Shown here piece by piece: positions 17,463 to 48,551 of a stretch of 64,000 bases of DNA; the stretch's first letter is position 1, and every line of letters starts with the position of its first letter. A model generated the notes under the pieces. The model was not told the origin of the DNA, did not search any database, and was given only the letters and a program-made list of their open reading frames with translations. The DNA is taken from the NCBI GenBank assembly GCA_040768485.1, contig JAXGMU010000004.1, forward strand, positions 17,879-81,878, written 5' to 3'. The stretch comes from Bacteroidales bacterium (GTDB lineage Bacteria; Bacteroidota; Bacteroidia; Bacteroidales; GCA-2748055). Made by a program: the position numbers and the translations under genes.

Positions 17463-18473
17463 TCATGGATCAATCTCCTTCAGGAGTTCCATGGACCTTT
17501 CCCACAGTTTCTTGCCCTCTGCCGGATCATAGACCTTGGGATCCATTTTCTTGGGATTGAACATGTGCAGGTACTCGCCGGTTGTCCCGGCATAATCCTG
17601 TGAAAGAGCCAGATACACCACCGGCCGGGCAGCTTTTGCAGGGGATTTAAAAACCATTGTGAAGATCCCTTTCAGGATCATCCGTAGCAGCCAGGGGGCT
17701 TCCTTCACGATGTTGGAATTGACCGGACCGGGACAGATCAGGTTGATGCTGACCTTCACCCCGTCCCTGTTGATCCTTCGGGAGAGTTCTACAGCATATG
17801 TGTTCAGAACCAGTTTGAAGTAACTGTAATTGGAAATTGCTTTGGAAACCCCGTAATCAAAATACCGGCCGAATTCATTGTAATCAATGGCAGAGGCTCC
17901 CTGGTGGGAATCGCTGGAAATGAAGATCATCCCGGGGGGGATTTTTCCGTCAAAGCTGTTTTCATGCGAAGGATCGTGTTTCCGGGGCCGAATAACAGAA
18001 TTTTGCAGCAACAGGTTTGTCAGGATCACATTGGAAAGGTAATTGACCAGGAACATCTCATCCTGGCCGGAAGGTGTTTTCCGAGATTTTGGTAATGTCG
18101 TAGCCGCATTCAGGATGCAGATATCAACGGAAATGTTGTCCCGGACCAGTGAGTCCGTGAACCGGTGGATGGAATCGATATCGCTCAGATCCAGATACCG
18201 CATTTCCACCCGGTCTGACCCCGAAAGTTCTTTGACCTTTTCTCCGGCTTCCGGGATCCTGCTCCTGCAGGCCATGATCACCCTTGCCCCGCGTTTTGCA
18301 AATTCCGTTGCCAGTGCAAAACCGAGTCCCGATGTAGCCCCGGTGATCAGCACGGTCCTCCCGTCTGCACGGTCTTTTTCCGTAAACCTGCCGGCCAGCT
18401 GCTGCTTTGAAAAGAAATCCCTGATCCCGGCCAGGGAGGCCACCACCGGATTTGTAAATCTGCCTTCGGACAT
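17463..18473 (-). CDS. Short-chain dehydrogenase/reductase (SDR) family oxidoreductase
   Basis: Cofactor motif VLITGATSGLGFALA and a catalytic YxxxK (YSYFK). Confidence 0.8.
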   Translation of the reverse strand: MSEGRFTNPVVASLAGIRDFFSKQQLAGRFTEKDRADGRTVLITGATSGLGFALATEFAKRGARVIMACRSRIPEAGEKVKELSGSDRVEMRYLDLSDIDSIHRFTDSLVRDNISVDICILNAATTLPKSRKTPSGQDEMFLVNYLSNVILTNLLLQNSVIRPRKHDPSHENSFDGKIPPGMIFISSDSHQGASAIDYNEFGRYFDYGVSKAISNYSYFKLVLNTYAVELSRRINRDGVKVSINLICPGPVNSNIVKEAPWLLRMILKGIFTMVFKSPAKAARPVVYLALSQDYAGTTGEYLHMFNPKKMDPKVYDPAEGKKLWERSMELLKEIDP

Positions 18474-34036: not shown

Positions 34037-34672
34037 TCAGGGCTGGTCCAGCAGGTCCAGTCCCTCCAGTGCAGACGAGCCGCCGGGGGTATGCAGCAGG
34101 GCTTTCTGGAACAGCACCTTTGCTTCCCTGTAATTGCCCAGTTTGAAATATGACCAGCCCAGCATGGTGAGGGCGTCATAATCAAAGGGATAGAGGTTGA
34201 CCACCTTTTCGAAGTATTTCTTCGCGGTCTCGAAATCCTCCCTGCCATAATAGATCAGCCCGATCCTGTGCATGGCGATGGAATTGTTGGGGCAGATTTC
34301 CAGGATCTTTGCATACTGATCCATCACCATGGTCCAGTTTCCCATGGCAGCCCCGGGGTACACGATCCCGAACCTGGGTTCAATGGCATAGGGCATGAGA
34401 TTGACCGCCCTGTTGTAATAGGCCACGGATTCGGTAAAATTACCTGCCTGGTAGCTCAGCCAGCCGAGGCGCAGGTTGATCTCGTATGATTTTTCATCAT
34501 ACACCTTCTTCAGGCTGTTCACCGCGGCAAGGACCTCCCCGGTGGCTTCCTGGATGTAGCTCTGCTGGAAGGCGTCCTTGATCTCCTTGAACTCCTGTCC
34601 CCTTACAGAAATGACAGCAGAAATAAGCAGGCCGGACCACAGGCCCCGCCTCAGAATTTTTAAAATTTCCAT
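34037..34672 (-). CDS. Periplasmic TPR-repeat protein
   Basis: Signal peptide-like N-terminus and repeated TPR-like 34-aa units (YNRAVNLMPY..., AKKYFEKVVNLYPFDYDAL..., AKVLFQKALLHTPG). The ATG lies 13 nt inside the upstream gene. Confidence 0.75.
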   Translation of the reverse strand: MEILKILRRGLWSGLLISAVISVRGQEFKEIKDAFQQSYIQEATGEVLAAVNSLKKVYDEKSYEINLRLGWLSYQAGNFTESVAYYNRAVNLMPYAIEPRFGIVYPGAAMGNWTMVMDQYAKILEICPNNSIAMHRIGLIYYGREDFETAKKYFEKVVNLYPFDYDALTMLGWSYFKLGNYREAKVLFQKALLHTPGGSSALEGLDLLDQP

Positions 34673-36015
34673 GATAATCCTCCGTAAATTGATATGGTGT
34701 GATAGGTGATTGCATTGCCCTGATCGACCAGGTTCGGATCAAGAGGAATGAACCTGCTCCGGTATGCTGCCCACCGGCCGCCCAGGTATACCATTGATCC
34801 ATTCGATGAAACGGGCACTGACACGGACAGACCGGCCTTTTTTCCTGGCTTTTCCCCGAAACTGTTAAAGATAATGGCTCCGTAATTTTCGGTATAGTTC
34901 TCCATCTCGCCCGATGAAGCATTCAGTTCAATCCATGCTTTTTCAGCGATGGAGAAGCCGAACAGGATCTCGGGGATGACGTTGAGCACTCCTTCCCCGG
35001 TGCCGGTCCTGTAAAGGGAATTGGCGAAACCGCCGGCATACAGGTTCAGGTTTCCCAGGGGGTACCAGGTGAGCCCGATCCTGCTCTGGACCTGCTCCAT
35101 GTCGTTCAGATCCGAGTAATATCCGCCAAGGTGAAGATCCACCGGACCGATCCGCTGTTTCAATGCCAGACCGGCCAGGAAATCAGTTTTTTCCTGGAAG
35201 ACAAGGATCATGTTGTTCCCTCCCTGGTATCCGGTCCCTGCATCTGCGAAAACCTGGTAGCGCAGGCGGACCACGTGGAATGCGGGGATCAATGTCAGTC
35301 CCGACAGGGTGGTCAGTCGGGGTGAGAGGTAATACTGATGCTGCCTGACCTGCTGGGCTGTCGTATAGTACCTGCTGATCCCGTCGAAATAATAATAGAG
35401 ATTCTTTTTCGACAGGAAGGTATATGCATGTTCCAGGGAGATCCCCGGGGCAATGGCGTTTGAAAGGGAGGCTGAAAGATTAGAGAATCCGGAGGTGACG
35501 TACTGGACACCGGGAACCGGTGCAGAAATGGATACATCGGGACTCTCCAGGATCTCCCTGTTCAGGTTATGGCTGATGAGGTATTCAACCCCGGACATGC
35601 CGAAAAAGGCTGGTTCGGCAGGGGGCATTTTCAGTGACAGATCGCCCCTGAACCGTTTTCTGAGAAGATCTGCCTGCTCCTTCTCACCGGCATAGATCCT
35701 GCAATAATAGAGATATTCAAGGGCCGCCGGGTCCTGGTGGTTCCACTCGAGCGCCCTGGTGAAATGGGTGGCCGCCTTCCGGTAATTCCTGTTGCTGTAA
35801 TAAGCGATCCCCAGCCGCATCCGCAGATAATAATAATCGATCTCCTCCCTGAGCGCTTCCTTCCCCGTATGGATGAGGCTGTCCCACTTTCCTTCAATAT
35901 AATACCGGTAGGTTTCCCTGTCGAACCTGCTGAATGAATCCTGTTCCTGTGCAATGCCCTGCCGGGATATGCCCAGAAGCAGCATGAAAAGGGTGATGAC
36001 GGTCAGTCTGCACAT
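34660..36015 (-). CDS. Outer-membrane protein with an N-terminal TPR module and a C-terminal beta-barrel
   Basis: Signal peptide MCRLTVITLFMLLLGISRQGIAQ. TPR-like N-terminal region of about 130 aa. The Tyr/Gly-rich alternating strand pattern ends in YGGLSWKF (terminal Phe). Confidence 0.7.
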   Translation of the reverse strand: MCRLTVITLFMLLLGISRQGIAQEQDSFSRFDRETYRYYIEGKWDSLIHTGKEALREEIDYYYLRMRLGIAYYSNRNYRKAATHFTRALEWNHQDPAALEYLYYCRIYAGEKEQADLLRKRFRGDLSLKMPPAEPAFFGMSGVEYLISHNLNREILESPDVSISAPVPGVQYVTSGFSNLSASLSNAIAPGISLEHAYTFLSKKNLYYYFDGISRYYTTAQQVRQHQYYLSPRLTTLSGLTLIPAFHVVRLRYQVFADAGTGYQGGNNMILVFQEKTDFLAGLALKQRIGPVDLHLGGYYSDLNDMEQVQSRIGLTWYPLGNLNLYAGGFANSLYRTGTGEGVLNVIPEILFGFSIAEKAWIELNASSGEMENYTENYGAIIFNSFGEKPGKKAGLSVSVPVSSNGSMVYLGGRWAAYRSRFIPLDPNLVDQGNAITYHTISIYGGLSWKF

Positions 36016-38195
36016 GTTGCTTCCAGGTGAAGTTTGCCGGAATCCACTTCAAAGGTCCGGATCCCTTTTTCGTTGATGGTCATGGAAAAATCAAGCCTGC
36101 GCAGCAATTTTCCCGAAATCAGGTTGCGGGCGGCGGACCGCAGCCGGATCTCCGAAGGGGACATCTCGTTATCGATCCATTCATACCGGCATTCGAATTC
36201 GGATCGCAGGAACTTCCAGAAAGGGGCCACAAAATCCTGCAGTGCCAGCAGCGGGTGCCGGAAGATCAAATTGAGCGGGTACCGGTCCGAGATGACCAGG
36301 TCCTGGTAGAATCCCTGCTGAACCTGAAATGCCGCCAGGAAAAAATAATAAAGCAGCGTATGTTTATTCCCGCTGTAATGGGTGAAATAGATCAGGTCCC
36401 CGTCGTTGATGAAATAAGCCACGGCACCCGATTGTTCACACCGGATATAGGGATTGTTGTAGGCATCCGTGTTCACCTCCCAGGCAGCTTCTTTCATGTC
36501 CGCGCTCCCTTTCACGGTAAAACGGAACCTTTTGCCCGGGATCAGGTGGAAAGCCTGGTGAAGGAGGCCGTTCCTTTCAATGTTTGAGACAAGGTCATCT
36601 TTCCGGGGATAAGCATAGGATTCCAGGCTGAACGGCTGGCGGGAATGAAGGATATAGTGGCTGACGGGGAATTTCAGCGTCACCGATCCGATATAAGGGG
36701 TGGCCTGCACCTGGTAATGAAGGTGTGGATAGGGAGAGCGTCCTGAATTCCCGCATCTTCCGATCTCGTCCCCTTCTTTTACCCTGTCTCCCTCACGGAC
36801 CCTGATGGTCCCCTCTTTCAGGTGGCTCAGGGAGGTGTACAGATGTTCGTCGTGCCGGATGACCACCGTGTTGCCCCAGTTATCCTTCAGATTGACCTCC
36901 CCCACGGGATTGTCAGGAACATGGTCCGCGACAAAAGCGATGGTGCCGTCCGCCGGCGCCACGACCATTTTGTCGTAACAGTGATAGTCGGTGAGCGCAT
37001 CTCCGCTTCCCATGTACTGTTTGCCCTCGGTACCGGTAATGACGAAATCCCACGCATGCCGGAACTCATCCTTGTGAGTATATTCCCCGTCATGGGCCTG
37101 GGATACCGTCCAGGCACCCAGGAACGGAAGCCTGATCCTCACCCTCTCGCGGTGCCGGAAGCGCACCACATCGTTGTGGAATGCATACAGGTTCTTTTCG
37201 GGGGAGTTATGCTGGATCAGCACTTCGGCCAGTTTGAGAGATGGTTCAAGCCTGAATTTCAGGGCATAGAGGAACAAAAGCACCACCAGGTTGAAGGGCA
37301 GTGAATACACCGGCAGGCTGAATACGGCAAGAACCCGGGACAGGCTGATGGTGATCATGGCCACGATGGGGATCAGCAGGATCACCCAAAGGAAGGAACG
37401 TTTGGAGGGGATGATGAAAAATCCCCCCACCGCGATGGATGTCAGGATGTAATTGAATCCGATATAGCTGTAGCTCACGTCGGAAATATGTGCCCCGATC
37501 AGTTCATAAAACAGGAACGCCGTATAAAAACCGATCAGCGAAAGTGAGAAGGCGATCCTTGAGAACAGCAGCAGTCCCGTCGCCAGCAGGATGCCCGAAA
37601 GCAGGTTGAACTGGAACAGGATGGCCGCCAGGGAGAGAAAGTAGATCCTCAGGGACCTGGCCAGATCCACGTCGTTCCACCATTCATACACCCGGACAAG
37701 CACATCTCCCCCGATGGTATACAGGTCATTGAAGGTGTAGATCCCCCGCTCGCTGATCCCCAGGGCCGTGAATTCCCTGGTGGCCAGGGTCATGATCCAG
37801 ATGGCCAGAAGAAAGGGGACGGAGAGGAACGGCAGGGCATACTTGCCGATCACTCCCTGGAGTGAAACGGCAATCAGCAGGGTCAGGATGGCCGCCATGA
37901 TGACCACCACGATGAGCAGCAGGTCGGGTTTGAAATAGATCCCAAGTCCCAGTCCCACCAGCAGGCTGTTGAAGCCGAACACCCCCCTGGCAATGTTCCG
38001 CCTGTCAAGTCCCAGCAGAAATCCTGCCAGGTTGGTAACGATCACCGAAAGCAGTCCCATCAGCCCCGCATAGATGTCGAAGAAGGTGACCAGCATGAGG
38101 ACAAAGGAGAACAGCAGCTGGTCCGAGAAGAAGACCTGCCCGTAGCTGTTGGGAACGGACCTGATAAAGAGCTTTATGTCGCCGGAGCGTTTCAA
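36003..38195 (-). CDS. Fusion protein: urea-transporter-family membrane domain + M23 metallopeptidase + uncharacterised C-terminal domain
   Basis: The N-terminal 330 aa or so are polytopic, with UT-like NSYGQVFFSDQ and GVFGFNSLLVGLGLG. The M23 core is VVAPADGTIAFV, WGNTVVIRHDEHLYTSLSHLK and GNSGRSPYPHLHYQV. The last 220 aa or so are unassigned. Confidence 0.75.
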   Translation of the reverse strand: MKRSGDIKLFIRSVPNSYGQVFFSDQLLFSFVLMLVTFFDIYAGLMGLLSVIVTNLAGFLLGLDRRNIARGVFGFNSLLVGLGLGIYFKPDLLLIVVVIMAAILTLLIAVSLQGVIGKYALPFLSVPFLLAIWIMTLATREFTALGISERGIYTFNDLYTIGGDVLVRVYEWWNDVDLARSLRIYFLSLAAILFQFNLLSGILLATGLLLFSRIAFSLSLIGFYTAFLFYELIGAHISDVSYSYIGFNYILTSIAVGGFFIIPSKRSFLWVILLIPIVAMITISLSRVLAVFSLPVYSLPFNLVVLLFLYALKFRLEPSLKLAEVLIQHNSPEKNLYAFHNDVVRFRHRERVRIRLPFLGAWTVSQAHDGEYTHKDEFRHAWDFVITGTEGKQYMGSGDALTDYHCYDKMVVAPADGTIAFVADHVPDNPVGEVNLKDNWGNTVVIRHDEHLYTSLSHLKEGTIRVREGDRVKEGDEIGRCGNSGRSPYPHLHYQVQATPYIGSVTLKFPVSHYILHSRQPFSLESYAYPRKDDLVSNIERNGLLHQAFHLIPGKRFRFTVKGSADMKEAAWEVNTDAYNNPYIRCEQSGAVAYFINDGDLIYFTHYSGNKHTLLYYFFLAAFQVQQGFYQDLVISDRYPLNLIFRHPLLALQDFVAPFWKFLRSEFECRYEWIDNEMSPSEIRLRSAARNLISGKLLRRLDFSMTINEKGIRTFEVDSGKLHLEATCAD

Positions 38196-38241: not shown

Positions 38242-39594
38242 TCATTTCAGATGGTCCGGGATCGCCTCCTGCTGCCTGACCAGTTCCATGTGTTCTTTTT
38301 TCCTGATCACATGGACCTTCCCGTCCAGGTCGATGAGCACCACATTGGGCCGGAGGGTGATGAACTGCATCCACTGGGTCATGTTGTAGGCACCGATGCG
38401 TTTGATCACGAAATGATCCCCTTTCTTGAGCAGGGGGAAGGCGATGGCATCCCGGACCACATCGATGTTCATGCAGAGGGGGCCGAAAATGGTGGTCTCT
38501 TCCAGGTGCTCAGATACCGGTGCAGCCGGATACACCTCATGATCGTACCAGAAGGAGGTGAACAACAGGTTCACTCCCACATCCACGATGGTAGCCCGGT
38601 TCCCCGAGGAAAGCCGCTTGTTGGCGATGACGGTTCCGAGCAGGTAACCCGCGTCATCGATCAGCGCCCTTCCGCTTTCAAGGATCAGCGTGGGCAGGTT
38701 CCGCGGATTGAGTTGCGAGTTGAGGATGGCCGATGAGATGGCCTCTGCGTATTCCTCGAATGAAGGGGCCGTATCGGAGCCCGGGTAATAGGCACCCTTA
38801 AGGGTGTTCTGGGAGGCAAATCCTCCCCCGAGATCGATATACCTGATGCTGGTACCATACTTCTTCTCGATCCCGTATGCCAGATCGGCCAGCTTGCCGG
38901 CAGCCACCTTGTAGGCACTTGCCGCGAGCATGTAAGTGCCTATATGCGCATGCAATCCCACCAGTTCCAGTTTTTCGTTCATCATGATCCGGTTGATGGC
39001 GTCCCACGCGTCCCCGTTTTCGTAGTTGAACCCGAAGCGGTCCCACATGGGATAAATCCCCGTATCCATGTTCACCCGGATGGCCACCTTGGGACGTTTT
39101 TCAACGTTTTCGGATATGGCGATGATGGAATACAATTCATCGAAGTGGTCGATGTGGATCAGGGAGTCATTCACAATGGCTTTTCTCAGCTCCTCGTCTG
39201 TCTTGTCCGGCCCGTTGAAAATGATCTGGCTCCCTTTCACGCCGTTCAGGAGGGCTTTGTCATATTCAAAGCCCGAAACCACCTCCGCCCATGAACCTTC
39301 CTGGTGGAAGATGCGGCACACCGCATCCAGGTAATTGGTCTTGTAGGACCAGGCGAACTGCACCCTGGGATACCGGGTCGTAAAAGCATGCCTGGCTTTC
39401 CTGAACTTTTCCCGGATAGTTCTTTCGGATATAACGTACAGGGGCGACCCGTGTTCGTCCAGCAGTTCTGAAACAGAAACGTCATCAATATGGGTGAGGG
39501 GTTCGGTTGCCACCTTCATCCCGAACTTGCTGGGCATGCCCGCCTGCAGTCTTTTGATAAAAGGTCTCTCGAAAGGCTTTTTTTCCATGATCAT
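38242..39594 (-). CDS. Group IV PLP-dependent decarboxylase (Orn/DAP/Arg decarboxylase fold)
   Basis: GSPLYVISERTIREKFRKARHAF..FAWSYKTNY (PLP-Lys context), IDLGGGF, and the C-terminal beta-barrel segment GPLCMNIDV. The start is trimmed to MIMEKKPF (cat at 39592-39594), 5 nt after the ATP-grasp stop. Confidence 0.8.
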   Translation of the reverse strand: MIMEKKPFERPFIKRLQAGMPSKFGMKVATEPLTHIDDVSVSELLDEHGSPLYVISERTIREKFRKARHAFTTRYPRVQFAWSYKTNYLDAVCRIFHQEGSWAEVVSGFEYDKALLNGVKGSQIIFNGPDKTDEELRKAIVNDSLIHIDHFDELYSIIAISENVEKRPKVAIRVNMDTGIYPMWDRFGFNYENGDAWDAINRIMMNEKLELVGLHAHIGTYMLAASAYKVAAGKLADLAYGIEKKYGTSIRYIDLGGGFASQNTLKGAYYPGSDTAPSFEEYAEAISSAILNSQLNPRNLPTLILESGRALIDDAGYLLGTVIANKRLSSGNRATIVDVGVNLLFTSFWYDHEVYPAAPVSEHLEETTIFGPLCMNIDVVRDAIAFPLLKKGDHFVIKRIGAYNMTQWMQFITLRPNVVLIDLDGKVHVIRKKEHMELVRQQEAIPDHLK

Positions 39595-39599
39595 TTGTA

Positions 39600-40643
39600 T
39601 TACAGTTCGCCCTGTGTGGACAATTTTTCGTATTCTTTCAGATCGGTGATCAGGTCGTAGGAGTAACGGATGAACATCTTTCCCACCTCGTATGTACTGA
39701 ATGGTTTCACTTCCAAGCCCAGGGCCAGTTTGACCATGGCTTCGGGAAGGTTCTGTCCCGCGCCCACCGCCAGGTAGACCCAGGCGGGGATCCTCGGATT
39801 GATCTCGATGATGTACAGCTCGTTCCGGTGAGACTTGATCAGTTCCAGTTCCATCCCTCCCCGCCACTTTGTCTTTTCCATGATCTCCCTGGTCAGATCC
39901 AGCATCTTCCTGTCGTCCAGGGTGATCCCCGCCCAGGCCTTGCCTTTGTCGGTAATATACTGTTTCCGCATGGGAACGGCACCGATGGTATTTCCCCGGC
40001 CGTCACCCAGGGCCACCACATTCACCTCGGTCCCCTTGATGAACTCCTGGATGATCACCGGAACACCCCATTTGGCAGTGATCTTGTTAAAGTGCATCCG
40101 CACCTGCTCTTCGTTGTAGGCCAGGTAGGCATCATAGAATTTACCCTTCACCATCAGGGGGTATTCAAAGTCATCTTTCAGTTTCCTGATCTCGTCCGGT
40201 CCCGTGATCGATTTGCTGAAGGGGACATGCAGGTCATATTTTTTGCCGAATTCGGGAAGATGTTCCTTGTGCCGTTCCTCGAACTGTTCCAGGGTGGGGA
40301 TGAATGTCCTGATCCCCGCATCTTCCAGCACTTTTTCCGACCGCATGAAGGCATACAGCTCTGCATCAAAGTTGGGCACCACCACATCGATGGGATCCCT
40401 GCGGTGGATCTCCAGGATCCTGTTTATCAGGACACCCGATCCTTCCGACGGATAGGGTACCTGGTAGGTCTTGTCCACCACCCCGCGCATATAAATGGCC
40501 GGCTCCAGGTTTTCATAGGCAAGCCCGATGATCCGCGGGTCGAAGTATTCGGATTCCCGGATGCCACGGATGACCGGTACCCCGGGTCCCGGATTGTCCG
40601 TATTGTTCAATCCGGAGAGGGCGACGGTGATCTTAGTTTTCAT
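39600..40643 (-). CDS. ATP-grasp family ligase
   Basis: Pre-ATP-grasp N-terminal domain, YPLMVKGKFYDAY, VIIQEFIKGTEVNVVAL and ELYIIEINPRIPAWVYLA. The start is set at MKTKITVALSG (cat at 40641-40643); upstream alternatives are 40649 and 40664. Confidence 0.8.
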   Translation of the reverse strand: MKTKITVALSGLNNTDNPGPGVPVIRGIRESEYFDPRIIGLAYENLEPAIYMRGVVDKTYQVPYPSEGSGVLINRILEIHRRDPIDVVVPNFDAELYAFMRSEKVLEDAGIRTFIPTLEQFEERHKEHLPEFGKKYDLHVPFSKSITGPDEIRKLKDDFEYPLMVKGKFYDAYLAYNEEQVRMHFNKITAKWGVPVIIQEFIKGTEVNVVALGDGRGNTIGAVPMRKQYITDKGKAWAGITLDDRKMLDLTREIMEKTKWRGGMELELIKSHRNELYIIEINPRIPAWVYLAVGAGQNLPEAMVKLALGLEVKPFSTYEVGKMFIRYSYDLITDLKEYEKLSTQGEL

Positions 40644-40887
40644 CCCCATCGTCCAGAAGTTCAAACTGCCTGAGCATGCTCAGGAAGTCAAAGTAATACT
40701 TCTCAAAGCTGGCCTCGTCCACGTCATATTCCGCGGTCATGAACGCTTTGATCTCTTCCAGTGATTTGCCATTGGCCAGATGGTTCAGGATCTCCCGGCC
40801 TACCTGGTTCATTGAGTAGGAATCGCCGGTTGTGGGATTGAAGACAAATCCGGAATCACTGACGGCAATATTCTTTTTGATCCGCAT
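40633..40887 (-). CDS. PqqD-family (RRE-like) small protein with an acidic C-terminal tail
   Basis: 84 aa. SGFVFNPTTGDSYSMNQVGREILNHLANGKSLEEIKAFM matches the PqqD-family pattern as I remember it. The protein ends LLDDGDEN. Confidence 0.7.
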   Translation of the reverse strand: MRIKKNIAVSDSGFVFNPTTGDSYSMNQVGREILNHLANGKSLEEIKAFMTAEYDVDEASFEKYYFDFLSMLRQFELLDDGDEN

Positions 40888-41063
40888 GATAGATGGAATG
40901 GTTCGTATTGGTATGGTAAAAATCAGGAATCTTCATCTGTTGGCTGTTACACTATTCCGGGAAAATTTTATAATTTTCAACCTCCGGCATCAGATTTGAA
41001 TGCAACATAAATGCGTTCTTAATACGACCGGGGAGATGATTTTGTTTCCCCGCCTTCGGATTT

Positions 41064-41639
41064 ATGATTACCACTACGATCCATATCAAGAACATGGTCT
41101 CCCGGTGCTGTATTGTACTGATCAAAGAGAAACTGGAAAAGGCCGGGATACTTGTGGATGAAATCAGCCTGGGAAAAGCGACCATCCGATTTGACGAAAC
41201 ACGCGTCAGCCGCGATGACATCAGGCAGGTGCTCCTGGAACTGGGGACGGACCTCATCGAGGGCAGGGAACAGCAGCTTGTGGAGAAGATAAAGCTGGCG
41301 GTGATCGAGCTGATCCATTACATGAACAATGTGGATTCCATCGTACGAAAGTCGGATTACCTGGTGGAAAAACTGGGGCTCAGTTATTCCTACCTGTCCC
41401 GGATCTTCTCTTCCCATGAACACATCACCCTGGAACGGTATATCATCCTCAACAAGATCGAGCGGATCAAGGAACTGATCGACCAGGAAGAGTTCACCCT
41501 GAGCGAAATTGCCTTTATGATGGACTACAGCAGTGTCCAGTACCTTTCCAGCCAGTTCAGGAACATCACCGGGATGACGGTGAGCGAATACAGGGCCGGC
41601 GACCGTTCCTCCAAAAGGCCCATCGATCTGCTTACCTGA
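41064..41639 (+). CDS. AraC-family transcriptional regulator with an HMA-like N-terminal domain
   Basis: The N-terminus TTTIHIKNMVSRCCIVLIKEKLEKAGI has a ferredoxin-like HMA pattern with vicinal Cys. The C-terminal AraC HTH is LSEIAFMMDYSSVQYLSSQFRNITGMTVSEYR. Confidence 0.8.
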   Translation: MITTTIHIKNMVSRCCIVLIKEKLEKAGILVDEISLGKATIRFDETRVSRDDIRQVLLELGTDLIEGREQQLVEKIKLAVIELIHYMNNVDSIVRKSDYLVEKLGLSYSYLSRIFSSHEHITLERYIILNKIERIKELIDQEEFTLSEIAFMMDYSSVQYLSSQFRNITGMTVSEYRAGDRSSKRPIDLLT

Positions 41640-41783
41640 TTTTATAACATTTTTGCTGAATTTTATGAGCTTCCTCCGGAGGAATTTCCAAAACTTTGTA
41701 TTTACAAATATAGATATATGGATACATAAGCAGGCCAGGTGCGGATCGTATCCATCGATGTAAAACAAAAAAACGATCATATC

Positions 41784-42434
41784 ATGAAGACAATGATGGC
41801 AAAGACCGCAGGAGTGTTATTGATTTCAGCCGGACTCTTTCTTCCGTTCACGCAGTGCACGGAAGGGGCTGCCATGGATGAAGGAAACGGCATTGCCGGT
41901 GATCCTGTTCTGAAAGGTTTTATTTCACAGCCATTGACCGAAGCTGAAAAAGAAGGGATATTATTCCTCAGGGAGGAGGAAAAACTGGCCCGTGATGTAT
42001 ATCTTTATCTCTATGACAGGTTCCCGCTCAGGCCTTTTCTGAACATTTCAAAGAGCGAACAGGTCCATATGGATGCCATGAAGTATTTGATTGACACATA
42101 TGGTCTGGAAGATCCGGTGGGGGACAATCCGGAGGGTGTATTTAAAAATGAAACCCTTCAGCAACTGTACGATGAGCTCATCCAAATGGGCAGTGAAGGC
42201 AGGGAGGAGGCGCTGAAGGCCGGAGCATTTATCGAGGAGGTGGATATTATCGACCTTCAGACGGAGTTGAATGAAAATGTGGAAAATACAGATGTCAGAA
42301 GGGTCTATACAAACCTCTGCAATGCCTCGGAGAATCATTTAAGGGTATTTGTCCGTGTACTGGGCAGATACGGCGTGGAATATGAACCGGTAAAGCTTGA
42401 AAGGGAGGAATTTCTGCGAATCATGAGTGAATAA
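41784..42434 (+). CDS. DUF2202 (ferritin-like) lipoprotein
   Basis: Start trimmed to MKTMMAKTAGVLLISAGLFLPFTQC (lipobox-like). EAEKEGILFLREEEKLARDVYLYLYDRF and SEQVHMDAMKYLIDTYG match the DUF2202 pattern. Confidence 0.7.
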   Translation: MKTMMAKTAGVLLISAGLFLPFTQCTEGAAMDEGNGIAGDPVLKGFISQPLTEAEKEGILFLREEEKLARDVYLYLYDRFPLRPFLNISKSEQVHMDAMKYLIDTYGLEDPVGDNPEGVFKNETLQQLYDELIQMGSEGREEALKAGAFIEEVDIIDLQTELNENVENTDVRRVYTNLCNASENHLRVFVRVLGRYGVEYEPVKLEREEFLRIMSE

Positions 42435-42507: not shown

Positions 42508-43146
42508 TCAATCCAGCTGTTCCAGCCTAAATTCCTCCAGCTCATCCGAGTAATCCCGGACCGCTTTGGAGGCCCTTCTTCCCGTAAAAAAGCCGATCAC
42601 CAGAAGCACGACCAGGACCAGGGCAACGATCTTTGCGGCGGAATCCTTTCCTTTAAGTGCATGTACGAGCGCCATGTAGAGCAGGTAGATCCCGTACAGT
42701 CCCACAATGACCCAGACAATACTTCCCAGGGTCAGGCTGATCCCGTAGAAGAAGGAAAGGGCCGACTGGACCGGATAGAGCACCGCAAGGGATGCAGTCA
42801 CCCTCAGGTTGGCCTCAAAATCTGTGTTCCCGCCGCAGATGGCAGAGATCACCAGCATGATCACGGCACCCACGAATAGCCCCACAATGGAGGCAATGAT
42901 CGCCCATACCAGGGCCATGATGCCCACGGCACCTCCCATGATCCCGGTTCCGCCCATGGCCGACAATCCCAGTACGCTCCAGAGGAATGCGAACAATCCT
43001 GCGATGACCCCGTAGATGGCCACCTTGATCACAGGTTCAGCGAATCCTCCCTTCAGGGAGAGGGAAGAAAAATAGGATTTGGGATTCATGAGGGTATCCA
43101 CGGAATCCCTGATGATCTTGTTCAGATCGATTTTTTCGTTGCTCAT
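42508..43146 (-). CDS. Yip1-domain membrane protein
   Basis: Start trimmed to MSNEKIDLNKII (cat at 43144-43146). The N-terminal cytoplasmic segment NPKSYFSSL is followed by five hydrophobic helices. Confidence 0.6.
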   Translation of the reverse strand: MSNEKIDLNKIIRDSVDTLMNPKSYFSSLSLKGGFAEPVIKVAIYGVIAGLFAFLWSVLGLSAMGGTGIMGGAVGIMALVWAIIASIVGLFVGAVIMLVISAICGGNTDFEANLRVTASLAVLYPVQSALSFFYGISLTLGSIVWVIVGLYGIYLLYMALVHALKGKDSAAKIVALVLVVLLVIGFFTGRRASKAVRDYSDELEEFRLEQLD

Positions 43147-43243
43147 AATGGATTCGATAAGTGTTTTTTTTGGTCCTGAAAAGGTACGAATCCGTGAGCA
43201 AATGCGCAAGAAAATTCCTGCCGGATCACCAGGCCTTCTTTTT

Positions 43244-44614
43244 TCAGGACTCCCGGCAGGGGAGTGCCATCCTGATGGTGGTCCCTTTTCCTTTTTCGGA
43301 TCGCAGTGAGATTTGTCCCCCGTGATTGTGGATGATCTGGCGGCAGAGGCTGAGACCGATGCCGGAGCCGTCAGTCTTGGTGGAAAAGAAGGGAACAAAG
43401 ACCTGATCCACGATCTCTTCCGGGATCCCCGGTCCGTTATCGGTCACCTCAATGATGATCCGGTCCAAAACCCGCCTGACCTTGATGATGAGCGTTGGTT
43501 CAACTGCTCCCTCCAGTGCCTCCAGGGCGTTCTTGACCAGGTTGATCAGCACCTGTTTTACCTGGGCTTCATCAGCCCTGATGCTGCATTTCGGGGGACC
43601 GGGAACGATGGTCAGGGCGATGTTTCTGTCAGTCAGCTCCTGGTTGTATAACTGCCGGATCTCATCCAGCAAGCCGGAGATCCGGACCTCCTTCAGATCG
43701 GGTTCGGGAAGCCGGGAGAGCTCCCTGTAATTGCCGATGAACCTGGTCAGGGCCCGGTTCCTGTCGGATATGGTCTTCAGTGCCATGAACAGATCGTCGA
43801 TGGTCTTCTGACTGATCTCTCCCGCCGACCTGATCCGGCCTTCCTCCTGCAGGAGCATCATCCCGGTTTCTGTCAGGGAAGAAAGGGGAGTGAGACTGTT
43901 CATGATCTCGTGGGCCATGATGCGGCTGATGGTGCGCCATGATTCCATTTCCTGCTGTTCAATTTCCGGTTCTATGTCCTGGAATGTCACGATCCTTACC
44001 GGGGCTCCGCCCACCTTTACGGTATTGAGCAGCACCAGCAGCTTCCTGCCTTCCGGGGTGCCCGGAAGGGGGATCATTTCTCTTCCGGAGGTCCCCATCG
44101 ACCGGATGGCCTCAGCGAATACCGGCGCCCTGGTCTCGATTTCCCCCCAGCCGGGCTTGCCGGTATGATAAATTCCAAGTGTCTGCAGGGCAAGCGGATT
44201 GATCAGCTGGATCCGGAATTCCTCATCCAGTGTGATCACGGCTGTATGGATGTGTTCCAGGATGGTCCGGAGGTACTGGTACTGGGTTTCCTTCTCGATC
44301 TTTGCCGAGGCGATGGCCCGGATGATTTGCTGGGCCGATCCGGCCAGTCCCCCGAACCCCAGTCCGGATACCTGTTCTTCCAGCCTCCTGTTGAGGTCCC
44401 CGTGAAGCACCGCTTCGAGCATAGACTGAACGACCCTGTTGGTGCGGGTGAGCGTTCGGAACAGTTCGGCGATCAGAAGCAGCAGGAGCAGCGACACCAG
44501 TACAACGGAGAAGAATCTTCCCTGCTGGTGGATGATCATTACCAGGAGGAACATGGTTGCCAGGATCAGGATCATCCGGATGGAGATGCGGATGATAAAT
44601 CTATTGAATACCAT
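43244..44614 (-). CDS. Sensor histidine kinase (NtrB/NtrY-like)
   Basis: Two N-terminal TM helices, H-box MAHEIMNSLTPL, N-box LINLVKNALEA, and G-boxes DNGPGI and GSGIGLSLCRQI. Confidence 0.85.
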   Translation of the reverse strand: MVFNRFIIRISIRMILILATMFLLVMIIHQQGRFFSVVLVSLLLLLLIAELFRTLTRTNRVVQSMLEAVLHGDLNRRLEEQVSGLGFGGLAGSAQQIIRAIASAKIEKETQYQYLRTILEHIHTAVITLDEEFRIQLINPLALQTLGIYHTGKPGWGEIETRAPVFAEAIRSMGTSGREMIPLPGTPEGRKLLVLLNTVKVGGAPVRIVTFQDIEPEIEQQEMESWRTISRIMAHEIMNSLTPLSSLTETGMMLLQEEGRIRSAGEISQKTIDDLFMALKTISDRNRALTRFIGNYRELSRLPEPDLKEVRISGLLDEIRQLYNQELTDRNIALTIVPGPPKCSIRADEAQVKQVLINLVKNALEALEGAVEPTLIIKVRRVLDRIIIEVTDNGPGIPEEIVDQVFVPFFSTKTDGSGIGLSLCRQIIHNHGGQISLRSEKGKGTTIRMALPCRES

Positions 44615-45974
44615 ACTTGTTCATTCTCCTGTAAAGGGCGTTCCTGTCAATTCCCAGATCGGCGGCCGCCCTGGTCACGTTCCCGTGGTGTTTCAGCAGC
44701 GCCCTGCGGATCAGGTTCTTTTCATTTTCATCCAGTTTCAGGGTTTCCCGCGTGAATACTTCTGCACGGACCGATCCCGGAGGCTCGATCCTGAGATGGT
44801 TCCCGTCGCTCATGATGACCGCCCTGGCCATGGTGTTCTGAAGCTCCCGCACGTTTCCCGGCCAGGGATATTGTTGCAGCTGCTTCATATTTCTTTTGCT
44901 GATCTCCCCGGCGGGTTTCCCGTATTTTCTGGCGGCTTCCCTGAGAAAATGCACCGCCAGCACGGGGATATCATCTGTTCTTTCCCTCAGGGGAGGGATC
45001 AGCATTTCAATTGTATTCAGCCGGTACAGCAGATCCTGCCTGAATTGTCCTTTATCTACCATCCGGTGGACCGGCTGGTTTGTGGCAGAGATCAGGCGGA
45101 TATCGATGGGGATCCCGGTGCGGGATCCGATGTGCCGGACAAACCGCTGCTCCAGGACTGTGAGCAGTTTTTGCTGCAGTGTGACCGGCAGGTTGCCTAT
45201 TTCATCCAGGAACAGGGTTCCCCCCGAGGCCAGTTCGAATCTTCCGGGTTTGTCCTGAACAGCCCCCGTAAAAGCACCTTTCTGATGTCCGAACAGCTCC
45301 GATTCGAACAGCGTCTCGGGTATGGCACCCATATCCACCCCGATAAACGCCTGGTCCTTCCTGTAAGAGCATCGGTGTATGGCCCGGGCCACCATTTCCT
45401 TGCCGGTGCCGTTCTCACCCAGGATCAGCACATTCGCATCGGTGGGGGCTACCGTCCGGATGGTTTCCTTCAGCTTGCGGATTGCCGCAGATTCCCCCAG
45501 GATCAGGGCGAAGGGTTTGTCCCCGTCATCGCCCAGTGTCATGGCCACATTTCTGTATTTTTCCTTTTCCCTGCTGGTTTCCTTCAGTTTGATGGCCGAA
45601 AGAATGCTGGCATGGAGCTTGGCGTTTTGCCAGGGTTTCAGGATGAAATCAAATGCCCCCGCCCTGATTCCTTTGACTGCCAGTTCCACATCTCCGAAGG
45701 CGGTCATCAGGATCACCACCGCTTCGGGATCATTTTCCCGGATCGTTTCCAGCCAGGAAAGGCCTTCGGAGCCTTCCGTGCGTCCCCGCTGGAAATTCAT
45801 GTCCAGCAGGATCACGTCAAATCCGGTTTTATTCAGGGTTACGGGGATCTTCCGGGGGTCTGAGATCACGGTGACATCGAATGAAAGCTGTTCCAGGAAC
45901 ATGCGGGCTGTAAGCAGCACGTCGTGGTCATCGTCGATCACAAGGATCTTTCCCGGAGGTTTCATTGTTTGCAA
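44601..45974 (-). CDS. Sigma-54-dependent response regulator (NtrC family)
   Basis: REC domain ILVIDDDHDVLL...DMNF. AAA+ Walker A GENGTGKE, the GAFTGA sigma-54 contact loop (QKGAFTGA), and C-terminal Fis-type HTH AAADLGIDRNALYRRMNKYGI. It overlaps the kinase gene by 14 nt. Confidence 0.9.
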   Translation of the reverse strand: MQTMKPPGKILVIDDDHDVLLTARMFLEQLSFDVTVISDPRKIPVTLNKTGFDVILLDMNFQRGRTEGSEGLSWLETIRENDPEAVVILMTAFGDVELAVKGIRAGAFDFILKPWQNAKLHASILSAIKLKETSREKEKYRNVAMTLGDDGDKPFALILGESAAIRKLKETIRTVAPTDANVLILGENGTGKEMVARAIHRCSYRKDQAFIGVDMGAIPETLFESELFGHQKGAFTGAVQDKPGRFELASGGTLFLDEIGNLPVTLQQKLLTVLEQRFVRHIGSRTGIPIDIRLISATNQPVHRMVDKGQFRQDLLYRLNTIEMLIPPLRERTDDIPVLAVHFLREAARKYGKPAGEISKRNMKQLQQYPWPGNVRELQNTMARAVIMSDGNHLRIEPPGSVRAEVFTRETLKLDENEKNLIRRALLKHHGNVTRAAADLGIDRNALYRRMNKYGIQ

Positions 45975-46160
45975 TGGGCTTCACGAATGTATGCTTTTCA
46001 TCAATAGAATGCAAACTGCACTGATACCGAACATTCATGTGCGTCAAAACCGAGCGTTTTTAATCGGATTGAGAAGCAAGTAAAATTTATAAACAACAAT
46101 TTATGAATACTTTAGATTTCATGGCATGCGGCTTGAGCAAATATTTTGAAAAACCAGATC

Positions 46161-48551
46161 ATGGTAAAACATTACATCAGGGTCACATTCCGTCACATCA
46201 AAAAGCACCTGCTGATCTCGCTGTTGAACATTGCCGGGCTGGCCACCGGCATCGCCTGTTTTGTGCTGATCATCCTCTATGTGAACCATGAACTGAATTA
46301 CGACCGGTACAACGAGCACTTTGATGACATCTACAGGGTGGCTGTGGATGCCAGGATCGGGAATACGGTGATCCGCCAGCTGGGAACTCCTGCACCCATG
46401 CCGGCAGCCATGTACCAGGAGTATCCCGGGATCAGAGCGATCACACGGATCCGGACACAGTCCCTAACGGTAACCATGGGCGACCGGATTTTCAATGAAC
46501 CGAATGTGGTGGCGGTGGACTCCACGTTCACCGACATCTTCACCCTGGATTTCCTGGAAGGGACACCCGACGGTGCCCTCAATGAACCGGCGGAGGTGGT
46601 CCTTGACCGGACCACCGCACAAAAATATTTCGGGGAGGGGTCCGCCCTGGGAAAAAATATCTACATATTTGATACCATCCCGTTGACGGTGACCGGGGTA
46701 TTTGAGGATTTCCCCGCCCAGTCACACTTCCATTTCAACATCCTTGTCTCACTGGTCTCCATGGAGGGATCCTACAATAATACCCAGTGGTTCAGCAATA
46801 ATTTTGCCACCTACATGCGGCTTGAGGAGGGTGCTTCCAGTGAACAGCTGGAGGCCAGGTTCCCTGATTTTGTGGACAAATACCTCTTTGGAGGAGAATA
46901 TGAAAAGTATGCCGATGAGGAGAACTACTGGAACCTGTCCCTTCAGCAGCTCAGGGAGATCCACCTGGGATCCGACCTGTCGGGTGAATTTGAACCCAAC
47001 GGGAACCTTTCCTATATCCGGATCTTTTCCGTGGTGGCGATCCTGCTGCTCGTGGTGGCCTGCATCAATTTTATGAACCTGACCACGGCCAGTTCATCCA
47101 TCAGGGCAAGGGAAGTGGGGATCAGGAAAACCAACGGGGCCAGCAGGGGGAAACTACAATGGCAGTTTTTCACCGAGGCAATCATTGTAACCATCCTGGC
47201 AACCATCCTGGCCATGGGACTGGTGGAGTCGGTAATGCAGCCTTACAGGGATTTCGTGGGAAGGGAGATCCAGCTGCACTACCTGGACAATCTCCTGATC
47301 ATTCCCGGCCTGCTGGCACTGGCGATCCTGGTAGGCCTGCTTTCGGGAAGCTACCCGGCCTTTTTTATGAGCGGTTTTTCACCGGTCGATTCTCTGGGCT
47401 TCAAAGGGGTGAAGCAGTCAAAAAGCTGGTTCCGGAATATCCTGGTCCTGTTCCAGTTCTCGGTTGCCATTGCGCTGATCGGAGGCACCCTGATCGTTCA
47501 GCGGCAGATGGACCTGCTTACGGAGGAATCGCTGGGATTTGACAAGGAACAGGTAGTCCTTGTGAACAATGCATATTACCTGGGGAACAACCTTGCAGTT
47601 TTCAGGGAAGAGCTGCTGCAGGTACCGGAGATCAGTCATGTGTCCGCTTCCTACGATGTTCCGGGAAACAATCTGATCAACTGGGGATTCGGGGCCCGGG
47701 ATGTGGACGAAAGTTTCAGTCTCAATGTGAACCTGACTGATGAAAATTACCTGGAAACCATGGGAATGGAGCTGGTGGCGGGTCGCTATTTTTCTGAAGC
47801 ATTCGGGAGTGATACAAGCAAGATCGTTCTGAATGAAACTGCTGTGGAGCTGCTGGGCTATGAGGAACCCATTGGTAAAATAACCTACCTGTGGGGTGAC
47901 AGAACCCTGCCCCTGGAGGTGATCGGAGTGGTGAAGGATTATTTTTACGAATCGAAACACAGGCTGATCAGGCCGCACGGACTGATGCATCACGGATACC
48001 TGGACTGGACGGTTCCCCAGTACCTGTCTGTCAGGGTGAAGGGTGCGGATTTCGAACAAACGATCGGGAACCTCGAAAAGAAGTGGAACCAGTATGTTGC
48101 GAATATCCCGTTTGATTATGCGTTTCTGGATGCGCATTATGAGGGGATCTATCACAATGAAAAGCAGACCCGTACCCTTCTGTACATCTTTGCAGCCATC
48201 GCCATCTTCATCTCCTGCCTGGGATTGTTCGGACTGGCCTCGTTCATGGCGGAGCGCCGGACCAAGGAAATCGGGATCCGCAGGACCAACGGAGCGACAA
48301 CCGGTAACATCCTCGGGATGCTTTCCATCGACTTCACCAGATGGGTCCTGCTGGCCAACCTGATCGCCTGGCCGCTCACCTGGCTGGCCATGAAAAACTG
48401 GCTTGAGGGATTTGCGTACCGGGTGGGGATCCCCTGGTGGGTTTTCCCGGTGGCGGGACTGGTTGCATTTGTCATCGCCCTTGCCACGGTGGGTTTCCAT
48501 GCCCTGAAGGCAAGCCGCCAGAATCCGTCCGTTTCCCTGCGATACGAGTAA
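46161..48551 (+). CDS. ABC transporter permease (MacB/FtsX-like, duplicated)
   Basis: About 800 aa with two MacB-periplasmic/FtsX modules. The start is set at MVKHYIRVTFRHIKKHLLISLLNIAGLA, typical of this family. The track ORF begins with TTG at 46146. Confidence 0.85.
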   Translation: MVKHYIRVTFRHIKKHLLISLLNIAGLATGIACFVLIILYVNHELNYDRYNEHFDDIYRVAVDARIGNTVIRQLGTPAPMPAAMYQEYPGIRAITRIRTQSLTVTMGDRIFNEPNVVAVDSTFTDIFTLDFLEGTPDGALNEPAEVVLDRTTAQKYFGEGSALGKNIYIFDTIPLTVTGVFEDFPAQSHFHFNILVSLVSMEGSYNNTQWFSNNFATYMRLEEGASSEQLEARFPDFVDKYLFGGEYEKYADEENYWNLSLQQLREIHLGSDLSGEFEPNGNLSYIRIFSVVAILLLVVACINFMNLTTASSSIRAREVGIRKTNGASRGKLQWQFFTEAIIVTILATILAMGLVESVMQPYRDFVGREIQLHYLDNLLIIPGLLALAILVGLLSGSYPAFFMSGFSPVDSLGFKGVKQSKSWFRNILVLFQFSVAIALIGGTLIVQRQMDLLTEESLGFDKEQVVLVNNAYYLGNNLAVFREELLQVPEISHVSASYDVPGNNLINWGFGARDVDESFSLNVNLTDENYLETMGMELVAGRYFSEAFGSDTSKIVLNETAVELLGYEEPIGKITYLWGDRTLPLEVIGVVKDYFYESKHRLIRPHGLMHHGYLDWTVPQYLSVRVKGADFEQTIGNLEKKWNQYVANIPFDYAFLDAHYEGIYHNEKQTRTLLYIFAAIAIFISCLGLFGLASFMAERRTKEIGIRRTNGATTGNILGMLSIDFTRWVLLANLIAWPLTWLAMKNWLEGFAYRVGIPWWVFPVAGLVAFVIALATVGFHALKASRQNPSVSLRYE

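Follow-up and report, generated by a model that had tools for sequence, protein, structure and literature searches.

A 64,000-nucleotide stretch of contig JAXGMU010000004.1 from a Bacteroidales bacterium (positions 17,879 to 81,878 of the forward strand; called the window here) encodes, at 40633–40887 on its minus strand, an 84-residue PqqD-family protein of the winged-helix type known as a RiPP recognition element (RRE; RiPPs are peptides made on the ribosome and modified after translation). On the same strand follow genes for a 347-residue ATP-grasp ligase (39600–40643) and for a pyridoxal-phosphate (PLP) decarboxylase of the alanine-racemase (AR) fold (38242–39588). We favor, by a modest measure, a model in which the PqqD-type protein would serve as a lasso-B1-type RRE and as the docking subunit of an ATP-grasp/PLP-decarboxylase complex, with a leader-like N-terminal extension of the decarboxylase as its ligand. 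The fold, gene order, gene fusions, tail motif, and covariation described below were established by computation; physical binding, the order of the reactions, and export are parts of the model that we infer.

First, sequence and fold place the window protein in the PqqD/RRE family. Its open reading frame (ORF) starts with ATG and ends in codons for LLDDGDEN, as an earlier note on this DNA had read it, and both the translation and the match to Pfam PqqD (PF05402; E 1.3e-9, 38.7 bits against a cutoff of 23.4) agree with that reading. In-frame TTG and ATG codons upstream of the start were not conserved in orthologs. We take the gene to be real because its product has 313 homologs at 69% identity or higher, almost all of them 84–85 residues long. 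None of the specific NCBIfam PqqD subfamilies reached its own cutoff with the protein, and the top relatives of solved structure were TbiB1 and TfuB1, which bind the leaders of lasso peptides (TbiB1, E 5.8e-6, or 6.6e-8 with a profile). An AlphaFold2 (AF2) model calculated from 43 homologs (predicted local-distance difference test score, pLDDT, 78) superposed on TbiB1-leader complexes with template-modeling (TM) scores of 0.81–0.83 and on TfuB1 with a TM score of 0.79. The model has a winged-helix fold of three helices and a three-stranded sheet, in which DSSP assigned strands at residues 14–17 and 22–25, helices at 28–38, 43–53, and 58–74, and bridges at 2–3, 8–9, and 78–79; residues 82–84 had pLDDT values below 50. 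The strands of the peptide cleft and helix 3 are the most conserved regions of the protein, and Tyr64 lies in helix 3, four residues ahead of the invariant Phe68.

Second, the decarboxylase begins with a tail of the motif type that discrete lasso RREs bind. ATP-grasp relatives were confirmed in 323 stretches of one-genome-per-species contigs; our locus analysis covered the best 80 of these, all from Bacteroidales metagenome-assembled genomes, with at most 10 kb of flank per side, and nine loci from other lineages, representing eight distinct contexts, were fetched by exact protein look-up. In alignments with Protein Data Bank (PDB) structures, homology of the window decarboxylase to FigC and LysA starts at residue 36, and the extension (MEKKPFERPFIKRLQAGMPSKFG; 39520–39588, minus strand) lies ahead of it. 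We assigned the start to the MEKK sequence at 39588, and a further in-frame ATG is present at 39594. In all 69 Bacteroidales orthologs that we compared, the extension fits the pattern M-[E/D]-K-x-x-[F/Y]-E-x-P-x-[I/L/V]-x-[K/R]-...-G-x-P-x-K-F-G, which in the window includes FERPFIKR (39550–39573). Discrete lasso RREs bind leaders through a [Y/W]xxPx[L/V/I/F/A] motif (PMC13381572), and related sequences occur at the same place in MSKQPYEKPRLTR from a proteobacterium-like locus, MSKRIYEHPVLRK from Polaribacter, MKPRYERPVIVR from Myxococcales, ..LYEKPVLIR.. from locus L089, and ..AYESPLIAR.. and ..SYQPPLIAR.. from loci of the Rokubacteria type. The motif is also retained (..AYVRPSISR..) in the linker of a natural fusion of the ATP-grasp ligase to the decarboxylase (P0167). 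A six-frame translation of the window contains the strict form [F/Y]ExPx[ILV] once, and of 753 other ORF products of the loci only 19 (2.5%) had the loose form within their first 30 residues. Two more loose matches were conserved, one in the core of the ligase and one in a membrane helix of the UT protein described below, and both are inaccessible.

Third, the tail and the RRE vary together at a position predicted from solved complexes. In lasso/LPP RREs, a helix-3 Asp (Asp70 of LppB, four residues before the Phe that divides the cleft) hydrogen-bonds to the hydroxyl of the leader Tyr. HMMER aligned Tyr64 of the window protein with the Asp of the TbiB1 sequence ..ERDLRDF.., and by helix spacing Tyr64 corresponds to LppB Asp70, with Phe68, Leu72, and Leu77 at the places of LppB Phe74, Met78, and Leu83. 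Among 77 PqqD/decarboxylase pairs, a tail Phe was always paired with Tyr (62) or Phe (1) at PqqD position 64 and a tail Tyr with Asp (10), Asn (3), or Glu (1), with no exceptions. Residue 64 alone among the 84 PqqD positions partitioned the tails perfectly (the runner-up scored 0.55), and the pair ranked second of 1848 by mutual information with average product correction (MI-APC). A neighbor-joining (NJ) tree of the ligase placed two coupled changes, one in the main Bacteroidales clade and one separately in locus L061. A switch from Tyr/Asp to Phe/Tyr would make chemical sense, as the ligand hydroxyl would be lost together with its acceptor.

Fourth, the three genes travel together across phyla as part of a larger cassette. 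In the window, the decarboxylase gene, assigned by Pfam Orn_Arg_deC_N and Orn_DAP_Arg_deC and by PDB matches, is followed on the minus strand by a gene for a 730-residue membrane protein (36003–38195) with a Pfam urea-transporter (UT) domain at residues 1–312 (E 5.9e-61), a cytoplasmic M23 domain at ~408–497 (E 3.3e-17), and a 230-residue C-terminal region that matched nothing in a family search. Genes for two secreted tetratricopeptide-repeat (TPR) proteins come next, of 451 (34660–36015) and 211 residues (34037–34672), both assigned by Pfam TPR matches and conserved position; the ..YGGLSWKF ending of the larger one may be an outer-membrane β-barrel signature. The order PqqD, ATP-grasp, decarboxylase, UT-M23, TPR, TPR was kept in the 80 loci wherever the contig extends, and the one seeming loss of UT-M23, in L070, was traced to a run of N at an assembly gap. 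An exhaustive search against representatives at 50% identity found 219 clusters of the ligase family at E <1e-30, and the PqqD, ATP-grasp, and decarboxylase genes were adjacent in every context that we examined, in several phyla. All 12 lineage contexts contained the full cassette (Bacteroidota, a Proteobacteria-like contig, Myxococcota, Nitrospinota, and Methylomirabilota), and the same core was found in Polaribacter sp. Hel1_85, Myxococcales, Prolixibacteraceae, one unassigned contig, and a proteobacterium-like contig with rnpA, yidD, yidC, and mnmE nearby. In loci of the Rokubacteria/Methylomirabilota type and in Nitrospinota, the order runs from TPR and PqqD through one or two ATP-grasp modules (one 'second' module being degenerate) to the decarboxylase and then UT-SIR2 with or without GNAT.

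The domain fused to the UT protein thus differs by lineage. It is M23 plus the 230-residue region in Bacteroidota, the Proteobacteria-like contig, and Myxococcota, whereas loci of the Methylomirabilota type and those of Nitrospinota have SIR2, with or without GNAT (UT fusions outside the window: L085, 6491–8623; L084, 7233–9344; L086, 13541–15229; L088, 11541–13256). These fused domains must be cytoplasmic because SIR2 and GNAT need NAD and acetyl-CoA, and Lys and Arg are abundant at the N-terminus of the window protein and in its linker after the UT domain, in agreement with a cytoplasmic location. The universal core of the cassette therefore comprises the PqqD-type protein, ATP-grasp ligase, and AR-fold decarboxylase, together with a cytoplasmic amide-acting enzyme joined to a UT domain and one or more secreted TPR proteins. 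In the M23 domain of the window (36700–37100, minus strand), the C-terminal motifs SHL and GNSGRSxxPHxH are invariant, as is an additional Q-x-H-x-G-x-x-T-H sequence just upstream; the canonical HxxxD is replaced by (H)AWDF, in which the His lies one residue nearer the Asp and is Phe in Polaribacter. Judged by these motifs, the activity of the M23 domain is uncertain.

An RRE usually signals a free precursor peptide, and we searched for one. When intergenic ORFs of 20–89 codons were clustered over the 80 loci, only PqqD and frame shadows were conserved. No ORF of 8–70 codons with a YxxP motif was conserved within 420 nucleotides upstream of PqqD, and no small ORF was conserved among the loci from other lineages, so the precursor gene expected of an RRE cluster was not found at the cassette. 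An upstream '..FYNIFTEK..' peptide proved to be a DNA motif that is conserved but whose frame, start, and stop are inconsistent, and genes in enlarged gaps were unrelated inserts (DUF4405, four-helix-bundle, Fic, acyltransferase-like, and GxxExxY-like). These results bear on the possibility that the PqqD-type protein is a classical RiPP chaperone, which binds a free precursor encoded elsewhere, or too short or divergent to detect, for tailoring and release by the ATP-grasp ligase, decarboxylase, and M23 domain. Free leaders are the usual RRE ligands, a 21–22-residue precursor of the fosfazinomycin cluster was long missed (PMC13622209), and a membrane-fused peptidase resembles leader removal coupled with export. 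Nevertheless, we regard this alternative as unlikely: no conserved small ORF appeared in 80 loci or in other phyla, an AR-fold decarboxylase requires a free α-amino acid moiety, which an ordinary peptide lacks, and the decarboxylase tail already provides the expected motif and covaries with the RRE.

The same tail could instead be a precursor in its own right, fused to the enzyme and cut off, for example after ..KFG by M23, to give either a modified peptide in free form or a scaffold peptide that is recycled. Borosins bear their core peptides on enzymes, and glycine is a common cleavage site of M23 peptidases; the leader-like motif is followed at constant spacing by the invariant G-x-P-x-K-F-G sequence. 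However, the SIR2 variants have no obvious protease, the motif is internal in the ATP-grasp~decarboxylase fusion, and spending one enzyme molecule per product would be costly, and we consider a fused precursor very unlikely. Lasso-like logic, in which an RRE, a protease, and an ATP-dependent cyclase work together, was rejected on the grounds that an AR-fold decarboxylase would have no substrate in a lactam peptide and that no precursor was found.

The earlier note had proposed that the acidic C-terminus of the PqqD-type protein is itself the site at which the ligase attaches or extends a substrate. According to this explanation, the ATP-grasp ligase would ligate to or extend the tail, and the decarboxylase would act on the attached residue, much as in the BtrI/J/K system, where a carrier holds the amino acid on which an ATP-grasp enzyme and an AR-fold decarboxylase work (PMC7857480). 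Several features fit. The lack of a nearby precursor gene is one; the tail is disordered in the AF2 model; and among 78 species-level Bacteroidales orthologs it has a net charge of −1 or lower in 77 and starts with Asp or Glu in 73. In addition, the two genes overlap by 11 nucleotides. The codons for Leu77–Asn84 and the stop occupy 40633–40659, and the minus-strand sequence GAT GAA AAC TAA (40644–40633) includes ATG AAA ACT, the ligase start (MKTKIT..., with its ATG at 40643–40641), as the note had seen.

This overlap, however, accounts for much of what is constant in the tail. In the six-residue tails of the window's clade, the −3 residue was only Asn, Asp, His, or Tyr (NAT codons; 116 of 116) and the −2 residue only Glu, Ala, or Gly (GNN codons), conservation that we consider a coding artifact because the embedded ATG-AAA of the ligase gene requires NAT and GNN; the last three residues are thereby fixed. 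When the 78 orthologs were aligned to examine conservation of the acidic tail, its length (2–9 residues), sequence, and end all varied, with Glu (29), Asn (20), Asp (14), Gly (6), Ala (3), and also Lys, His, Arg, Gln, Val, and Ser as last residues. A tail that orthologs do not conserve is among the outcomes that the note had named as telling against its idea, and this outcome was largely observed. A conserved acidic motif ending in Glu, as in LysW, was found neither among these orthologs nor in other lineages. Outside Bacteroidales the acidic tail is absent or basic, as the PqqD proteins of other cassettes end in ..KMLD, ..LLATSE, ..GIALPR, ..ASVDG, ..NGLVG, ..AEVDE, or ..PAKRLEEK, so that what remains can be a single Asp, ATSE, ALPR, Gly, or PAKRLEEK, and TbiB1, an ordinary lasso RRE, likewise ends in ..KELLEG. 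Moreover, in three assemblies that are mutually 77–83% identical (P0214, P0390, and P0391), PqqD is fused in frame to the ligase through a linker of ~50 residues; the free PqqD C-terminus is dispensable because such natural fusions exist. Finally, no RimK or LysX structure was among the 50 nearest folds of the ligase. We therefore consider a carrier role for PqqD itself extremely unlikely, and the tail is best read as the short disordered end of a domain, with a sequence largely set by the overlapping ligase start. Other parts of the note fared better. Cooperation of PqqD with the ligase and decarboxylase accords with the adjacency of the trio and with the pairwise fusions; its failure to find a nearby precursor was borne out across the 80 loci; and its intuition that the protein is not a classical RiPP chaperone was upheld in that no free precursor gene was found. 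Presentation of a substrate to the ligase by PqqD is viable, and the carrier idea may persist as a tether on the N-terminal tail of the decarboxylase, not on PqqD.

The ATP-grasp ligase (pLDDT 92.5 in an AF2 model) belongs to an uncharacterized family with Pfam and NCBIfam matches of the ATPgrasp_Ter, ATP-grasp_3, and PRK12767-like type. It matched no PDB entry by sequence, and by profile it matched only carbamoyl-phosphate synthetase (CPS) and 2pn1. Its Foldseek neighbors were 2pn1, biotin carboxylases, CPS, an L-amino-acid ligase, PurD, PurK, and PylC, with no graspetide ligase among the top fold neighbors. The decarboxylase matched FigC (7kh2) at E 6e-60, LysA at 1e-38, and BtrK at 1e-25, and it scored below the NCBIfam cutoffs for FslC (239 against 500 bits) and lysA (220 against 298 bits). 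By these scores it is a member of the LysA/FslC clade, also describable as the DAPDC/FigC clade, that falls outside either named family. Many relatives of the ligase, of ~710 residues, have two ATP-grasp modules in tandem (for example P0124, P0412, and P0423), and L085 (4229–5110) encodes a separate, truncated second ATP-grasp paralog that lacks the central ATP-binding part.

These likenesses also suit an explanation in which PqqD binds no peptide and is a structural or regulatory subunit of the ligase in a FigA/FigC-type pathway, where an acid and a diamino acid would give an N-acyl amino acid and, after decarboxylation, an N-acyl diamine; the tail motif and its covariation would then be coincidental. 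The closest match of the decarboxylase is indeed the N-citrylornithine decarboxylase FigC, ligases and carboxylases of small molecules have the folds closest to that of the ATP-grasp ligase, and an ATP-grasp enzyme that depends on a partner protein is known (PMC13097080). Yet the strands of the peptide cleft and helix 3 are the best conserved parts of PqqD, and perfect, position-specific covariation between residue 64 and the tail is hard to explain without contact. We think this explanation quite unlikely.

In the docking model that we favor, PqqD, bound to or fused with the ligase, would grip the decarboxylase tail by placing the aromatic, Pro, and aliphatic residues of the motif in the cleft between strand 3 and helices 1–3, and through this grip the decarboxylase would be tied to the pair of PqqD and ATP-grasp ligase. 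The ligase would yield an amino-acid moiety joined via its distal group, and this product could then be handed directly to the decarboxylase, so that ligase and decarboxylase would act in succession, as in the FigC/SbnH/AcsE/MccE/BtrK clade (PMC7857480). The amidase joined to the UT domain (M23 in the window; SIR2, with or without GNAT, elsewhere) might deprotect or release the amine product at the membrane, and the product might exit via or beside the UT protein toward the periplasmic TPR protein and outer-membrane components, as the secreted TPR and putative barrel proteins would work beyond the inner membrane.

A more elaborate version would make the tail a swinging arm. Lys23 of the window decarboxylase (39526–39528), 15 residues downstream of the motif, has a Lys counterpart in 69 of 69 Bacteroidales orthologs; elsewhere the tail Lys is at +15, or at +14 in two loci, and is Arg in the single fusion P0167. 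PqqD would grip the motif while the ATP-grasp ligase acylates this Lys through the distal carboxylate of an amino acid, decarboxylation would take place in cis, and the UT-fused amidase (M23/SIR2), acting on an N-ε-acyl-lysine, would release the product for export. Tandem ligases of some phyla could permit repeated rounds, and SIR2 (a lysine deacylase) or M23 could free an amine or oligo-amide product. We hold this version to be doubtful because of the Arg exception in P0167. If it is true, the cassette would be a protein-templated, non-thioester assembly line.

Several observations weigh against docking as we have drawn it. The covariation rests on about two independent events, as counted on an approximate NJ tree. 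Most Bacteroidales have Phe in place of the lasso-consensus Tyr, and in the tandem-ligase class (..PYEPM[A/G]LTR..) the Pro is shifted by one. The tail could pack on the decarboxylase itself or touch the ligase directly. Docking gives no account of the net negative charge of nearly all Bacteroidales PqqD tails, it is possible that a precursor is encoded elsewhere in the genome, beyond the 20-kb loci, and the role that we give the UT fusion is conjectural.

Upstream of the window operon, alignment of upstream regions revealed a conserved non-coding motif (GAAAATTATAAAATTTTCCCGGAATAGTGTAACA; 40945–40978, minus strand) that lies 58–91 nucleotides 5′ of the PqqD start, holds two TAACA-type repeats, and can pass for a short conserved ORF when sequences are clustered. 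Most likely it is a promoter element or the operator for the neighboring AraC regulator. At gathering score, Rfam had no match in the region upstream of the operon or elsewhere in the window. The divergent AraC-family gene (41064–41639, plus strand; Pfam HTH_18) is accessory and adjoins the cassette in 52 of 80 loci. Its product has a Cys-bearing N-terminal domain that resembles a heavy-metal-associated (HMA) domain (weak CopZ match), and its orthologs carry NM[VIL][CS]xC[CA], in the window MVSRCC, which suggests metal or redox sensing. Beside it, in 30 of 80 loci, is an accessory gene for a putative lipoprotein of the ferritin-like DUF2202 family (41739–42434, plus strand; Pfam E 2.6e-53). 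Both genes were found only in Bacteroidales, and other lineages have LytTR, NtrC-type, or OmpR-type two-component systems in place of AraC-HMA. A metallophore pathway, which AraC-HMA, DUF2202, and the FigC-like enzyme might have indicated, was therefore rejected as a core function. A role in defense was rejected as well, as PADLOC models matched none of the six cassette proteins or the UT-SIR2-GNAT variant.

Other neighbors recur less widely. In one subclade, a DUF4405 (cytochrome-b561-like) membrane protein of 277–287 residues with a repeated helical C-terminal region is encoded between PqqD and the ligase (L051, 9142–10002, and the same position in L062, L064, L072, and L074). A protein with a type IX secretion system (T9SS) tail is encoded downstream of the cassette in a subset of loci. 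A 967-residue Fkp-like fucose pyrophosphorylase and GHMP kinase protein (window 30257–33160, plus strand) adjoins the cassette in several close relatives. Further window genes encode a histidine kinase with a response regulator that depends on sigma-54, a membrane protein with a Yip1 domain, a permease of the MacB/FtsX type, and a GDPD-LamG protein that bears a T9SS sorting tail (43244–45974 and 42508–43150, minus strand; 46146–48551 and 48691–51114, plus strand); the histidine kinase/response regulator set and the Yip1-domain protein recur only in close relatives of the window. ARAGORN called an unusually long, 91-nucleotide tRNA-Pro(GGG) at 59274–59364 (plus strand), for which there was no Rfam tRNA match at gathering score; the call may be false, or the gene may be atypical.

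Full-text literature searches found no description of the compact cassette defined here, and its cytoplasmic amidase fused to a urea-transporter domain is unusual. RREs are used to mark RiPP clusters of any class, a practice that assumes their ligand to be a free precursor. If our docking model is true, an RRE would recognize the leader-like tail of a biosynthetic enzyme, and a RiPP device would be used to assemble a complex or to tether an intermediate. Polaribacter sp. Hel1_85 is a cultured host of the cassette, with its locus in assembly GCA_000766795.1 (JPDS01000001.1, 1195582–1216628).

How does the cassette compare with known systems? The RREs of lasso B1 proteins (TbiB1 and TfuB1/FusB1) and LppB resemble the PqqD-type protein in fold, as top matches, in the pattern of cleft residues, and in the type of ligand motif. 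However, the candidate ligand in the cassette is the N-terminus of an enzyme, and the Tyr/Asp pair is Phe/Tyr in most Bacteroidales. The cassette also lacks the free precursor, B2 protease, and Asn-synthetase-like cyclase of lasso systems; the neighbors are instead an ATP-grasp ligase, an AR-fold decarboxylase, and UT-M23. Graspetide systems of the microviridin type differ in that no precursor was found at the cassette and no graspetide ligase was among the top fold neighbors of its ATP-grasp protein. In scaffold-peptide pathways (pearlins, such as those for 3-thiaglutamate and ammosamide, and fosfazinomycin), a small molecule is built on an RRE-recognized ribosomal peptide and released by a peptidase (PMC13622209), whereas the 'peptide' of the cassette would be part of an enzyme and its ligase is an ATP-grasp protein, not a peptide aminoacyl-tRNA ligase (PEARL) or an Asn-synthetase-like enzyme. 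Peptidase-containing exporters are alike in fusing a hydrolase to a membrane protein, but the partner in the cassette is of the urea-transporter family and theirs are ABC transporters.

LysW/LysX and RimK/S6 share with the cassette a small acidic protein encoded beside an ATP-grasp enzyme, but the cassette has no conserved terminal Glu motif, zinc-ribbon fold, or ligase of the RimK/LysX branch. In BtrI/J/K, which makes the butirosin side chain, an amino acid is attached to a small protein via the distal carboxylate and is worked on by an ATP-grasp enzyme and then by an AR-fold decarboxylase (PMC7857480), and in the cassette an ATP-grasp ligase likewise stands beside an AR-fold decarboxylase homologous to BtrK. 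BtrI, however, is a phosphopantetheinyl carrier that forms a thioester, whereas the small protein of the cassette has an RRE fold and no carrier-protein features; the acyl-carrier-protein (ACP) and PP-binding families gave no match to it at the thresholds used. FigC and LysA are also nearer to the cassette decarboxylase than BtrK is. With FigA/FigC (FslA/FslC) of rhizoferrin synthesis, SbnH, and AcsE, the likeness is that enzymes of the FigC clade decarboxylate an amino-acid moiety after it has been linked to a larger acid; the differences are that the cassette ligase is an ATP-grasp protein and not an NRPS-independent siderophore (NIS) synthetase, that FigC has no aligned N-terminal motif region, and that the cassette has no siderophore receptor genes. 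Judged by the features that define lasso, graspetide, LysW, and Btr systems, then, the cassette belongs to none of them. By analogy, its PqqD-type protein appears most like lasso B1 in ligand recognition, and its enzymes appear most like BtrJ/BtrK or FigA/FigC in the logic of a ligase paired with a decarboxylase.

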